From: Candidatus Saccharimonadota bacterium | GTDB taxonomy: Bacteria; Patescibacteriota; Saccharimonadia; UBA4664 | Assembly (NCBI GenBank): GCA_019352195.1 | Contig: JACAFG010000001.1 | Coordinates: forward strand, 130,485-194,484 | DNA length: 64,000 bases | Reading direction: 5' to 3' | Translations under genes and position numbers: made by a program | Shown: one piece after another, positions 19,938-61,261 of the stretch | Position numbering within the stretch: position 1 is the stretch's first letter | Layout: each line of letters begins with the position of its first letter | The notes under the pieces: generated by a model | Told to the model about the DNA's origin: nothing | The model's input: only the letters and a program-made list of their open reading frames with translations | The model's database searches: none

Positions 19938-20186
19938 CTAAAACGGGGACAGTCCGAGGAAGGTGGCACCACCTAGGATCGCCACAACAAGAATGACGAT
20001 CAGGGCAATCTCCGCCAGCAGATTGTTACGCGTGTGGTGCAAATACGGGTCATCGGTCTCGCTGGGCCGTGGTGGCTGCCGAAACCGTTTCGACGCCGCA
20101 GCCTCGCGAGCGAGAGCCGCTATGATTTGCTCGGGGCTATCGGGGCTATCGGGGCTATCGGGGTTGGATTGGTACGGATAGACCAT
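19938..20186 (-). CDS. Small tail-anchored membrane protein
   Basis: C-terminal TM; PDS x3 repeat from a 9-bp tandem repeat. Confidence 0.5.
   Translation of the reverse strand: MVYPYQSNPDSPDSPDSPEQIIAALAREAAASKRFRQPPRPSETDDPYLHHTRNNLLAEIALIVILVVAILGGATFLGLSPF
20131..20163. repeat. 9-bp tandem repeat (tcggggcta) x3.7
   Basis: Seen directly. Confidence 0.85.
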
Positions 20187-21656: not shown

Positions 21657-21732
21657 GGGGTTGTAGCTCATCTGGTAGAGCGCTGCATTCGCATTGCAGA
21701 GGTAAGGAGTTCGATCCTCCTCAACTCCACCA
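21657..21732 (+). tRNA. tRNA-Ala (CGC)
   Basis: Cloverleaf, G3:U70 pair, anticodon loop TTCGCAT, GTTCGA T-loop, encoded CCA. Confidence 0.97.
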
Positions 21733-21865
21733 AAAGTCCTAATTGTCCGAAATATCCCTTTATCAAGCCACAATTAGGAGTTCGATTAAGATTACTAAGG
21801 TTACCTGGTGATCTTTTTCGTATGATTTTGAGGCTAGTTCGATTAGTGGCTCGTAAGGTGACCAT
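21733..21865 (-). pseudogene. Putative C-terminal remnant of a large serine recombinase at attL
   Basis: Minus-strand frame ...NLNRTPNCGLIKGYFGQLGLLVE reads into the tRNA antisense, as the intact LSR does at tRNA-Gln. Confidence 0.4.
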
Positions 21866-21937
21866 GTGCCGGCGTACGCTGAGTTTTTGAGAATATTTAT
21901 TCTAAGCCAAGAGACGTGAATTTGTTATACTCGGTCC

Positions 21938-22441
21938 ATGGCTACATTTATTTTTGTTGCAGGTGCGCCAGGCGTCGGAAAATCTGTCGTTTCGGCAGCT
22001 TTGCGGCAGCGACTCGACAGTCCGTTATTCGAATTTGGCTGGATACCAGAGTTTCGCAATACGGGCCACACGCAAACGACGTATGAAGAAGATGAGGCAT
22101 TGGCGTTTGAGAATCTGGTACTTGTCGCCAAAAACTATGCCGCTCACAAGTATCAAAATGTCATAATTACTGATCTCGAGAACCATCGCATTGAGCAGCT
22201 CGACGAGGAATTCTCAGACTACAGCTATCACATTTTCACACTTCGACAAGTAGATGAAGACCTTCTGAAGAAGCAGATTCTCGATCAATCACGTTCCAGC
22301 GGGTATCGGGATTGGGAGCAGGCTCTCCGAATTAACAAAGACCTACTTGAGCGCGATCCACTCAAAAATGAATCATTTATTGATGTAGGTCAAAGAAGTA
22401 TTGAGGATGTGGTGGACGAGATAGAAGCCGCAATAAAGTAA
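21938..22441 (+). CDS. P-loop nucleotide kinase-like protein
   Basis: N-terminal AGAPGVGKS Walker A. Confidence 0.8.
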   Translation: MATFIFVAGAPGVGKSVVSAALRQRLDSPLFEFGWIPEFRNTGHTQTTYEEDEALAFENLVLVAKNYAAHKYQNVIITDLENHRIEQLDEEFSDYSYHIFTLRQVDEDLLKKQILDQSRSSGYRDWEQALRINKDLLERDPLKNESFIDVGQRSIEDVVDEIEAAIK

Positions 22442-22484
22442 GCTCGCGCCCTATCGCGTTAAGAACAACTGAAGGTTCATTTAG

Positions 22485-22588
22485 CGTTCATTCGGCGATC
22501 GCATCTCAACCCCAGCCGTCTTCAGCATTCGCCACACCGTCGACCCGTCCACCCCAAACTTGTCGCCGAGCGGCGCAAGTGACCAGCC
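22485..22588 (-). pseudogene. 3' remnant of an HTH gene; diverged direct repeat of 23726-23829
   Basis: 104 bp, about 85% identical by manual alignment; encodes GWSLAPLGDKFGVDGSTVWRMLKTAGVEMRSPNER. Confidence 0.85.
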
Positions 22589-22655
22589 ATACCAAACGGC
22601 TCGGCAGCAGAGCAAATAGTGGGAATTGCTGCCAAGTGGTACTATTTATACACTT

Positions 22656-23672
22656 ATGGCCAGACGATTACACGAACTACTTTTAGGCATAGTTCTGGCC
22701 GCTGCCTGTATGATGTCGCAGCCTGTAATTGCAAGCTCGTTCGCTAGTGGACCTACCGGACCTTCCGTCAACGGCATATTTACCGGGAAGTTCATCGTAA
22801 ACTTCAATTTTGCCTATACCGGCTCGGGACAGTACCTCTCGGCAGGTAATAACTATTATGGCGGCCAGGAGGAATATAGCTGTAATCTCAGTCCTGGCCA
22901 GTGTAGTATTTTTGGCTACCAAGGCACGCATCATTACAAGGTCTGGCAGAATGCCTCAGGAGATCTTTACTATGATCTCGACGATAAGTGTGGCAATAAC
23001 TGTGGGCAGATTGCAGGATCGGCGAGTGATGCCCCCGGGGTGGCGCAGGTTCTTTTCGATCAAGTAATAGTGATAGACGAAACGCCTCCCGTTGTATCGA
23101 TTACGTCGCCTACAAATAATGCAAATACGTCCGCACCTGCAATTAGCGTTACTGGAATAGTATCGGATGGGAATGAGTCAGGCGTCGCAAGTGTAAAAGT
23201 AAATGGCGTAAATGCAACAATCTCTGGTTCAGGCTTTAGCGCCACAGTTCCACTGACGACGGGCCTAAACACGGTCACCGTGTTGGCATCGGACAAAGCA
23301 GGGCACCAATCATCAACACAAATTACAGTTTTGCGGCAGGCAGGCTCATCGGTTTCGGGAGGAAGCACCAGTGGAACGAACAAACTAACCGAAACACAGT
23401 CTCCGATAAAACAAGTCCCGGTGGCGCAAGGCGACGTCAGCGCTGCTAATTCTGCCACGCCTCAAGCGGTGGTGGTATCGAAATCGAAGAAAAATATCTT
23501 GGTACAGGCAGCAACTTACGGAGGCCTAGCATTAGCCGGGTCATTGCTACTAACATTTTTGATCTTAGTCATTCTCTTTGTACTAAACAGATTCTCTATC
23601 ATAAAAGTGGAGTTCCCGAATAACGTCAGTCCAAATAATCGGGAAAAACAATTACCACCCCGATCGAAGTAG
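22656..23672 (+). CDS. Surface protein with Ig-like domain and C-terminal TM
   Basis: Signal peptide, DETPPVVSITSP..VTG..V.VNG..LTTGLNTVTVLASDKAG Ig repeat, TM. Confidence 0.75.
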   Translation: MARRLHELLLGIVLAAACMMSQPVIASSFASGPTGPSVNGIFTGKFIVNFNFAYTGSGQYLSAGNNYYGGQEEYSCNLSPGQCSIFGYQGTHHYKVWQNASGDLYYDLDDKCGNNCGQIAGSASDAPGVAQVLFDQVIVIDETPPVVSITSPTNNANTSAPAISVTGIVSDGNESGVASVKVNGVNATISGSGFSATVPLTTGLNTVTVLASDKAGHQSSTQITVLRQAGSSVSGGSTSGTNKLTETQSPIKQVPVAQGDVSAANSATPQAVVVSKSKKNILVQAATYGGLALAGSLLLTFLILVILFVLNRFSIIKVEFPNNVSPNNREKQLPPRSK

Positions 23673-23709
23673 GTGCCAAGCTAAGGTTGGCAACATGCAG
23701 TAAATTGCG

Positions 23710-24147
23710 TCAACCGTCGCGGTGCCGTTCGTTCGGCGATCGCATCTCAACCCCAGCCGCCTTCAGCGCCCGCCCCACCGTCGTCCCGTCCACGCTAAAC
23801 TTCTTGCCGAGCCGCACCAGCGACCAGCCGTCGCGGTAGAGCTGCGCGGCCGCCTCGACGTCATCTGGCCTGAGGCCGGGCTGGCGAATCTCCACGTTGT
23901 AGCGGGTGAGCACAGCCGTGACGGTGTGCCGGTGGACGCCAAACCGGTGAGCCAGTTCCTTGACGCTCATCCCCTGGAGGTAGGCCGTGATGAGTTGCGA
24001 CGACTGGCTATCATCGAGACGGCGCTGATGGTGCCTTACACGCCCGGGAACCTCCACCCGCTGCTCGGCCAGCGCGATCAAACGTACGCTGACAAGCGGT
24101 TTTGACCGAAAACGGGGGTTGCAGTAGTGGCTCATAACCTCCACCAA
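23710..24147 (-). CDS. Double helix-turn-helix protein (actinobacterial element type); start lies inside the att core
   Basis: AYLQGMSVKELAHRFGVHRHTV and LYRDGWSLVRLGKKFSVDGTTV; GC-rich relative to flanks. Confidence 0.8.
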   Translation of the reverse strand: MVEVMSHYCNPRFRSKPLVSVRLIALAEQRVEVPGRVRHHQRRLDDSQSSQLITAYLQGMSVKELAHRFGVHRHTVTAVLTRYNVEIRQPGLRPDDVEAAAQLYRDGWSLVRLGKKFSVDGTTVGRALKAAGVEMRSPNERHRDG

Positions 24148-24185
24148 AATGAAAACCGGACTTATGTCCGGTTTTCATTTTGGTG
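24142..24185 (+). terminator. Perfect 20-bp hairpin, probably the displaced tRNA terminator
   Basis: caccaaaatgaaaaccggac-ttat-gtccggttttcattttggtg. Confidence 0.85.
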
Positions 24186-24376
24186 TGCAATAAAGAATGG
24201 ATCGAGGTGGTTAGTTCAGTGACTGCAGGTCACGCACATTCGTCAATTCTTGTACGTGAGGTTTGACTACCGATCAAACCGTTTCCGCCACTGTGCTACA
24301 GTATTCATTGATACGGATACTTATAGATGAAAAGTTCGCTGGCTGCAAAGCTAGCGAACATTCATCGAGCGTGGCG

Positions 24377-29738: not shown

Positions 29739-29814
<76 letters not shown>

Positions 29815-30109
29815 TATAGTCATTTTTACTGCGTTTTAGCGCAATATAGCATTACATCAAGAGCTGAGAGGCTATGTTTGATTTGATTCAGCACGCAGCT
29901 AAGTAGCGCTAACAATAAAATATAAACAGACAACCACTGGCACCAAAGCGTTCAGAAGTGCCATCAATCCACAAAGCGCCATCACTAGCTTCCTCTGGAG
30001 GTCTTTCTGTCTTGGTAGGTTCTATAAAGGGCGTAGATATTGACCAAGATCGTAGCTCCGAATACTGATAACATATCAGTACAGGGTCGTAGTCTGATAT
30101 CATAAGCTC

Positions 30110-59453: not shown

Positions 59454-59528
59454 TGGGATGTGGCCAAGCGGTAAGGCGTCTGATTCTGGCTCAGAAGATC
59501 GTAGGTTCGAATCCTACCATCCCAGCCA
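59454..59528 (+). tRNA. tRNA-Gln (CTG)
   Basis: Cloverleaf, anticodon loop TTCTGGC, GTTCGAATC, CCA. Confidence 0.96.
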
Positions 59529-61112
59529 TTTAGTTTTTATACCCGCAATAGCGGCAGTTTTCTCCTCAGCAGAGCCAGAATCTGAGGTTCTAACCATTTC
59601 ATATTCAGCCTTGAGCGCCGGTAGGCCTTTTTGGATAGGAATAAGCCACTCAAAAGGCATTAATTCGATTTTCCCGCCGTAAAGTGTTGGGTTTGAACCC
59701 AGCGCCAGTAATATGTCGCGCTTGGCGGTAATATCGCCTTTCTCAAACCGCTCTCGGCCATGAGCGATCACATCAATCGTCTTGTGCAGACCTTCACGCC
59801 AACTGGCCGCCCGATTTGTGGTGTCGGCGACATTATCTTCCATATCCTTGATCTGGCTCAATAGAGCTTTCGATTTTTCCTTAAACACCTCGTCCCGGAT
59901 TAGCTCTTTGCTAGCCATGTCGATCAATTTGTCATGCTGTTGGCGCATTTGCTGCAAGGTAGAAAACTGCGTATTTTCAATAGCTTTTCGCTCTTCTGCT
60001 TCGGAGCCGTTCATTTCCTTAATAGCTTCGAGTGCCCACTCCTCAAATTGAGGATGAATTGTGTAGCTATCGAGCAAAGCGTCTAATTGGCCGGCAAGAT
60101 TCTTTTCCTCTACCGTTTTGCGGTTATCGCATGGACGCTTGCGCGTGCAGTGATAGTAGATGTAATGCAGCACAGTGCCGTTCTTCAGCCTCTTATATTT
60201 GTCTTGGGCAGTTACGCTACAACCGCACTCCTTGCAGAAGAGGAAGCCTCGATAAGCAAACTCTTTAACTACCGATTGTCGGGGCTTGCCCTTATTGCCG
60301 AGAATGATCTGCGCCTTATCATACTCTTCCATAGTGACCATCGCGGGGTAGTTGGCTTTTTCGTACTCGCCGAGCTTACCAGGTACAGGTATTAGCCCTG
60401 TATACCGAATATTAGTAAATAGGAGATAGAGAGTGCTACGGGTCATAGGCGTACCGCCAGACCTGCGGCGTACCGGCGTACGGTAGCCCCATTCATCATT
60501 CGCTATTTTCTGTATCATCGGCACGCTGTAATTTCCGGAAAGAAGCATGTCCCACATCTTCCGTATTAGCGCATGCCGATCTTCATCAGCAATAATGATG
60601 CCCTGGTCAGGGTTATTAGGGTTTCGGGCATTCAAGTAACCTGGGAGTGCCCTATAAGTTAACCAACCATTCTTGCGCTGCTGTTCGTTGCCACGCTTAA
60701 CATCCACACTGAGCTTAGCCGAGTAATACTGTGACTGACTCATCATGCTTTGCAGCATCATGATACCGTCCGGCGAATTGTTGAAATGATAGGAACCAAA
60801 TTTGAGGTCTTGGATAAATCCACGCCGTATTGCGTAGGTGATGTTGGCGGCGTCAATCTCATTGCGGGATAGGCGGTCAGGGTGCCATGACAAAATACCA
60901 TCAGCTTCGCCGTTCTTGATCATATCCATGACCTTGGCGAAGACAGGTCGGCCCGGCTCAAATGCGCTGCGGCTTTCCTCTAGTGTGGCAACTATTTTGA
61001 TGCCCGGAAACATCTCCCTCAGCTTGCGTGCCTGGGCGGGGATTGATAAGCTCTGTCGCTCAGCGTCTTCGGACGATTTACGAGCGTATAAAATGTAGCG
61101 AAGTGAATTCAT
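59514..61112 (-). CDS. Large serine recombinase (integrase)
   Basis: YARKSSED catalytic Ser, DRLSRN, recombinase domain, CKECG..YYHC Zn ribbon, coiled coil. Confidence 0.95.
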   Translation of the reverse strand: MNSLRYILYARKSSEDAERQSLSIPAQARKLREMFPGIKIVATLEESRSAFEPGRPVFAKVMDMIKNGEADGILSWHPDRLSRNEIDAANITYAIRRGFIQDLKFGSYHFNNSPDGIMMLQSMMSQSQYYSAKLSVDVKRGNEQQRKNGWLTYRALPGYLNARNPNNPDQGIIIADEDRHALIRKMWDMLLSGNYSVPMIQKIANDEWGYRTPVRRRSGGTPMTRSTLYLLFTNIRYTGLIPVPGKLGEYEKANYPAMVTMEEYDKAQIILGNKGKPRQSVVKEFAYRGFLFCKECGCSVTAQDKYKRLKNGTVLHYIYYHCTRKRPCDNRKTVEEKNLAGQLDALLDSYTIHPQFEEWALEAIKEMNGSEAEERKAIENTQFSTLQQMRQQHDKLIDMASKELIRDEVFKEKSKALLSQIKDMEDNVADTTNRAASWREGLHKTIDVIAHGRERFEKGDITAKRDILLALGSNPTLYGGKIELMPFEWLIPIQKGLPALKAEYEMVRTSDSGSAEEKTAAIAGIKTKWLGW

Positions 61113-61261
61113 ATTTATTCCCAAAAACCTAAAGGGCGACTCGGTTGTTGACACAGTCCATAGCAAGAAGCTATTTCCTGATACCGAGCCGCCCTTACGG
61201 GCCGGGAAATAAAAACACTTCTCGCAAATTTATGGACCGTGTCAACGTTCACATTGTACCA

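Follow-up and report, generated by a model that had tools for sequence, protein, structure and literature searches.

A start-less double helix-turn-helix gene behind tRNA-Ala(CGC) as the probable severed tail of a large serine integrase

Organization of the tRNA-Ala(CGC) locus

The window analyzed here is a 64,000-nt stretch of contig JACAFG010000001.1 from a Candidatus Saccharimonadota bacterium. Behind obgE it carries a tRNA-Ala(CGC) gene whose 3' end overlaps an 11-nt sequence, CTCCACCAAAA, and a second copy of this sequence lies 2,414 nt away (Table 1). The 11-mer occurs five times in the 1.19-Mb genome and by itself is weak evidence for an att site. Its assignment as one rests on the adjoining hairpin, the arm motif and homologous loci. 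The hairpin is likely the original trailer of tRNA-Ala(CGC), and it pairs the TTG/GTG codons of a helix-turn-helix (HTH) gene that opens at the far copy.

The arm motif is separated from the core by 10 nt on the tRNA side and by 15 nt on the far side, a shift of 5 nt. In the available part of 10.1101/2025.01.03.631226, a 4-5 bp shift between attB and attP arms is given as a signature of large serine integrases, and the outer motifs of the P and B arms at 21657-24185 are displaced to this extent. The 15-nt spacing is also found in 47 HTH starts, which were chosen by that motif. The crossover core is very short, with 11 nt at this locus and 4-9 nt in the two-ended relatives described below. A minus-strand frame at 21865-21668 reads ...GQLGLLVELRRIE... 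into the tRNA antisense, and the core is read in the identical frame on the tRNA side and the far side. An initial annotation of the window had described this geometry (the tRNA gene, the repeat, the arm shift, the HTH frame opening at the repeat and the shared core frame), and all of it is confirmed.

Base composition divides the genes between the repeats into two groups, with 64-65% GC in the HTH copies and 46-48% in the cargo genes. The first cargo gene has no match in 25 genomes of the same family. The HTH stub retains 86% identity to the intact gene over 104 nt. No integrase sequence is found in any frame of 21700-24200, which agrees with the earlier view that the integrase body has been lost here. 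The Resolvase, recombinase and zinc-ribbon gene carried by relatives is missing from this interval, and the two Recombinase-domain matches of the genome lie elsewhere. The far att junction is intact. At the left junction the core is present and the P' arm is weak; its score is -16.6 in register and 4.3 at 2 nt out of register, compared with a leave-one-out range of 0.5-18.4, such that no in-register arm is recognized. A scan for promoters and terminators gave no signal beyond shuffle level.

Table 1. Features of the tRNA-Ala(CGC) locus, in window coordinates
Feature	Position	Strand	Remarks
tRNA-Ala(CGC), integration target	21657-21732	+	T-loop motif 21709-21714 is the B-arm motif
att core copy at tRNA 3' end, left junction	21725-21735	+
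Low-GC segment, open frame without integrase likeness	21736-21865	-	38% GC; at 21743-21752, a weak motif like that of the P' arm, shifted 2 nt from register (p about 0.02)
Degenerate second P-arm-like site ending ACCA	21837-21864	+	16/20 to 24118-24137; one of 2 such matches in genome
Cargo, small P-loop NTPase/kinase-like protein	21938-22441	+	AAA_18 below Pfam cut-off; 46% GC
3' stub of second HTH-tail gene, 5' part and core lost	22484-22588	-	86% nt identity to 23726-23829
Cargo, predicted membrane/secreted protein	22626-23672	+	Ig-like domain (Glucodextran_B); 48% GC
Intact double-HTH frame opening at att core, putative detached integrase tail	23710-24147	-	65% GC
P arm	24118-24138	+	Motif 24118-24123, 5 nt farther from core than tRNA motif; doubles as coding sequence for HTH N-terminus
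att core copy, far junction	24139-24149	+
Perfect 20-bp hairpin 3' of far core	24142-24185	.	z = -7.3

Besides the two Recombinase-domain matches there is a third, divergent integrase. This is a serine integrase of a second kind, at window positions 59517-61229 on the minus strand, which enters the antisense of tRNA-Gln in another frame; another integrase (G000 C11:50414-52343) reads into tRNA-Pro. The last codons of a serine integrase at G000 C2:87042-88665 (L001) overlap a frame that resembles the start of a P-loop GTPase gene, which we take to be ychF. By eye, a second GTTCGA-led unit like that of 21837-21865 is visible at 21779-21808 and is possibly a further att-arm relic. A 9-nt unit in three to four copies occupies 20131-20163, inside a short ORF that precedes obgE. 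At 29802-29872, the tRNA-Ala(GGC) trailer is 93% identical over 71 nt to G019 C17:24315-24385 (L208 5316-5386), a sequence from a same-family genome. Because this counterpart comes after a P-arm-like core, the trailer probably represents the end of a mobile element instead of host sequence.

The double HTH gene and its complete relatives

The intact HTH frame (24147-23710) has 145 codons and starts LVEVMSHYCNP. Two HTH units follow, as first proposed; a Pfam match recognizes them, and the AlphaFold model (pLDDT 87) shows two units of three helices each. The best structural neighbours reported by Foldseek, namely Tc3, Cbp and the paired domain, are bipartite DNA-binding domains, with weak scores (E 0.003-0.07) and nothing at E <= 0.001. 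Close homologs start VExLxxYxN without a common Met. On comparison of their sequences, the HTH copies are under purifying selection: dN/dS is 0.14-0.56 in 45 non-independent pairs from related Acidimicrobiia genomes, and 0.65 over 35 codons for the two copies of the window.

A search with an HTH profile recovers 142 representatives at E <= 1e-30. Many of the best 150 profile matches are multi-HTH repeat proteins. Among the 82 single-stretch matches examined, one (P0135) has the C-terminal half of an integrase ahead of its HTH. The relation of HTH starts to att arms was examined in 133 de-duplicated starts from fetched loci by a frame-blind search for the P-arm motif (at least 5/6 matches). A clear motif is present in 49 starts, with 46 in frame and open and three out of frame, a distribution that is not fully independent of how the loci were found, namely by HTH profiles that include the N-terminus. 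The 58 starts with a weak motif are distributed 29/13/16 across the three frames. Linkage of HTH starts to the att core, anticipated by the initial annotation, is seen in the clear-motif set.

Complete elements carry an integrase at the tRNA gene and an HTH gene at the far core. In all seven such two-ended elements, which span 8-31 kb and use tRNA-Ala, Pro, Val and Arg genes, the integrase frame continues into tRNA antisense, and the HTH at the far end keeps this frame across the core without a stop; one integrase of this set (G459) is a 176-codon fragment, one tail (G004) has a single HTH, and one element (G019) crosses a contig break. The integrases overrun the core by 11-20 extra residues. 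The set excludes L020, with a truncated and frameshifted integrase and a lost HTH start, L214, with an integrase that does not adjoin the tRNA, and integrase loci without an HTH in the fetched stretch. An integrase frame that crosses the att core is thus seen in the relatives and is not seen at 21657-24185.

The tail reading is also supported by G019, a host of the same family with an intact integrase in tRNA-Ala(CGC) and an HTH gene on the abutting contig. Its serine integrase frame of 587 codons reads into tRNA-Ala(CGC) antisense and is accompanied by a relaxase, a coupling protein and regulators. The HTH gene lies on another contig, the first 25 bases of which overlap the end of the integrase contig (24/25). 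Together, these contigs (C7 and C17; L171, L207 and L208) represent a high-GC element of ~30 kb, although the genome of this host is small. The element has the relaxase, the coupling protein, methylases, a helicase, a KAP NTPase and TatD.

Among the best 120 of the 4140 homologs of the G019 integrase, 86 fit the pattern of a tRNA-antisense tail, one of them being a false match, and four run on into an HTH instead. Two of these natural fusions, P0196 and P0200, have the full double HTH (694 and 698 aa), and two, P0175 and P0199, have a single HTH. Natural fusions on chromosomes are found at attP-type junctions. In the fetched loci, a further four distinct sites resemble P0135 in having an integrase C-terminal half and an HTH in one ORF, which would be expected where a new element entered an older junction. 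The initial proposal that the circular element encodes an integrase-HTH fusion is supported for the family by the in-frame two-ended elements, the natural fusions and the in-frame P-arm starts. It fails locally, where a circle from 21657-24185 would carry no such fusion.

Fusions are rare in databases. A tblastn search of phage and plasmid records with a fusion fragment gave no match, and scans of viral contigs yielded no real relative and no fusion. A search for longer homologs with a single HTH found none in 1309 candidates; this approach was insensitive, as the integrase-side search later found fusions. The tail may not be universal in the integrase family, because several members have no HTH within the 20-60 kb fetched or up to the contig end. 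These include integrases of G977 (60 kb) and G796 (40 kb), and the fetched stretch of G173 has two integrases 8.6 kb apart and no HTH. Contig C2 of G004, a genome of the window's family (L211-L214, L218), has twelve HTH-tail matches, several near tRNA genes; some are single-HTH tails and one is fused to an integrase half.

Integrase-less units at tRNA genes

The tRNA-HTH loci collected here number 27 (29 rows less two duplicates). An integrase adjoins the tRNA in seven and lies inside the element in one, and 19 have none, in a sample where the fetch size favours short units. HTH matches occur in 5/25 other genomes of the host's family and in 3/300 of a phylum sample. In some Acidimicrobiia genomes such units form arrays, where segments of 2.3-4.0 kb share a left end of ~100 nt and carry unrelated cargo. 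This left end is present in 5/201 genomes, and two of the five array genomes have no Recombinase-domain match. The HTH frames of these integrase-less arrays are intact, though the upstream arm has in-frame stops. By analogy, the arrays fit either decay with accretion, as in cis-mobilizable elements of the CIME type, or cassettes mobilized in trans. Tandem HTH-capped units are located at tRNA-Val in L278, L279, L288 and L236, all from Acidimicrobiia-class genomes. G868 has in addition a unit of ~180 bp that adjoins the tRNA and is like the relic of the window's locus.

The segment at 21657-24185 is likely an integrase-less, CIME-like leftover that holds a pair of low-GC cargo genes together with the stub of another HTH gene; a missing integrase is common among tRNA-HTH loci. 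CIMEs are described as elements that lack integration genes, keep their att ends and accumulate in tandem at tRNA ends (PMC5704250, available part), and this description resembles the locus, where integration and transfer genes are gone, the far junction is intact and the left one has a weak P' arm. It differs in that CIMEs have been described for decayed ICEs and IMEs, whereas here the end that is kept would encode the tail of an integrase. Damage to one arm is a further difference. The locus may have formed by two or three or more rounds of insertion at one tRNA end. Integrase bodies would then have been lost, so that two units, each of cargo plus an HTH, remained beside another relic resembling an att site.

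A different account holds that the 2.4-kb segment is a live, non-autonomous cassette, consisting of the core, cargo and an HTH/P arm, that a visiting integrase moves among tRNA-anchored arrays. The majority of integrase-less loci, size bias included, and the Acidimicrobiia units with a common left end and differing cargo would suit such a cassette, as would the intact far core and HTH and the orientation of both cargo genes, which converge on the 3' end of an HTH. However, the P' motif is not in register and one HTH copy is a stub. In addition, no copy of the unit was found in 60 relatives or in other studies, and neither a circle joint nor an empty site occurs in the contigs of the source run, which drop rare forms. 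A live cassette is an unlikely description of this segment.

The severed-tail reading and its alternatives

Probably, the 2.4-kb segment is a leftover of serine integrase elements that carry attP inside the integrase gene, and its start-less HTH gene is the C-terminal tail of such an integrase. The seven in-frame elements, the natural fusions and the 46 in-frame P-arm starts support the HTH as a C-terminal module separated from large serine recombinases of this family. Integration into the tRNA 3' end would sever the HTH tail from the integrase, and excision would restore it in frame. The circle would make the full-length enzyme, and the integrated copy would make a short form.

The bipartite HTH of the tail might provide an extra DNA-binding arm that favours integration, an aid the short form would do without. 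Such an aid is plausible because, past the tRNA, the host arm consists of trailer sequence that varies and has no fixed motif. This role is preferred over that of a recombination directionality factor (RDF): engineered integrase-RDF fusions excise (PMC12286644, available part), and on the circle a fused RDF should therefore work against integration. Even so, we place it somewhat short of an even chance. More speculatively, direction may be controlled by covalent gain and loss of the bipartite DNA-binding domain, with the enzyme long and integration-competent on the circle and short when integrated. Severed tails of this widespread, tRNA-targeting family would then cap small cargo cassettes without an integrase, among them the segment at 21657-24185, which stack at tRNA genes and are moved in trans, including from Actinomycetota-like to Patescibacteria-type hosts. 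This extended scheme is tentative and, taken whole, rather doubtful. The available text of PMC12286644 also speculates that C-terminal extensions may block the RDF site.

The HTH could instead be a stand-alone regulator or excision factor whose start codon is the GTG of the core or an ATG close to it, with the circle fusion being a by-product of att placement or an off-switch. GTG opens 45/47 HTH frames and ATG occurs within seven codons in 9/47, including that of the window. Leaderless GTG starts may be compatible with this role, and intact HTH frames conserved in integrase-less arrays also fit it. Moreover, engineered C-terminal integrase-RDF fusions catalyze excision (PMC12286644, available part), so that expression away from the circle would suit a true RDF better. 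Against these points, an SD-like motif precedes only 2/47 HTH starts compared with a background of 8.6%, and 29/47 frames have no ATG ahead of the HTH core. Upstream DNA is unrelated host trailer, and the hairpin covers the start. The scarcity of SD motifs and ATG codons, together with start codons buried in a hairpin, thus argues for a tail. A by-product also need not hold its frame over the cores of six different tRNA genes. Overall, stand-alone function appears quite unlikely.

BPs-type systems have regulators under att control, and by a similar logic the long form could be an autorepressor: on the circle its tail would bind attP or the promoter of the integrase gene and so keep expression low, without any catalytic effect. 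The bipartite HTH fold is suited to this task. However, in 15 elements no common candidate operator was seen in the 120 nt next to the core on the tRNA side, and in G019 separate XRE and IrrE-like regulators precede the integrase gene. Autorepression is distinctly improbable. That the tail has no role at all is a further rival.

The initial annotation took the peptide of 21733-21865 for the surviving C-terminus of the element's own integrase. Its frame runs without a stop through the 57 codons that precede the core, which arises in 2-5% of shuffles, and the out-of-register P'-like motif lends the idea some further weight. But family tails end G-[S/L]-[N/S]-x-x-x-L-V-[E/G], and against a profile of 85 tails the 25 residues before the core score -22.6, under every one of the leave-one-out tails, and a score at least this good is reached by 61% of random open peptides. 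In hhalign only residues 36-64 align, of which the last few before the core and mostly tRNA-dictated positions account for the match. Absence of integrase homology in this peptide is one of the two outcomes that the initial annotation named as refuting, and it applies to this locus only. Its low GC content also stands apart from that of the HTH. If the P' motif is a real damaged arm, it implies an integrase frame other than the annotated one, and that frame has stops. On profile score and hhalign the peptide is rejected as an integrase tail, and the local claim, largely refuted already, is very improbable. A circle from 21657-24185 would encode no recombinase.

The Mx8 integrase is a phage enzyme of the tyrosine class, unlike the serine integrases of the HTH family, which exchange a folded module that binds DNA. 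Its attP also lies within the integrase gene, and integration creates a new 3' end that alters activity but does not kill it (PMC6070905, available part). SSV1, pTN3 and pT26-2 likewise have a gene split by its own att site at a tRNA, and tandem or recombined copies yield chimeras (PMC8371274, available part). These are archaeal tyrosine enzymes cut into two likely inactive parts, whereas all three catalytic and DNA-binding Pfam domains of the HTH family remain on one side. Both precedents for an attP inside an integrase gene cited by the initial annotation, Mx8 and SSV1, are borne out.

The closest serine example is DsiB of the Dehalococcoides ssrA islands, where dsiB always overlaps the att repeat (McMurdie 2011, PMC3146451). 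DsiB has been proposed to be fully functional only on the circle or beside the 3' fragment of a neighbouring island. As in the HTH family, it is a reverse-strand serine integrase that extends over an att repeat at the 3' end of a structural RNA gene in tandem islands. In contrast to that family, with its defined double HTH, natural fusions and many tRNA targets, no appended domain is identified for DsiB in the available part of PMC3146451. Islander 2014 treated serine integrases as not known at tRNA genes (PMC4383910, available part). An HTH tail on a serine integrase has no mention in the available parts of PMC10083194, PMC12884075 and PMC13626063, and no account of one was found in the full-text literature, mostly that outside subscription journals. 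The precedents are Mx8, SSV1 and the DsiB proposal, and the HTH tail is what differs.

The locus at 21657-24185 is itself only a relic, and its wider relevance lies with the family. Database integrases taken from integrated copies would be short by ~140 residues and have a tRNA-antisense peptide at the C-terminus, a point of importance when integrases are mined. Severed tails would account for many of the 'HTH regulators' without a start codon that are found, as a large class, next to tRNA islands. From their sequences, the high-GC elements of this family in small-genome hosts hint at transfer from Actinomycetota. For the question of how serine integrases without a known RDF control direction, this family would offer a natural pair, a long enzyme and a short one, for which the att sites are mapped.
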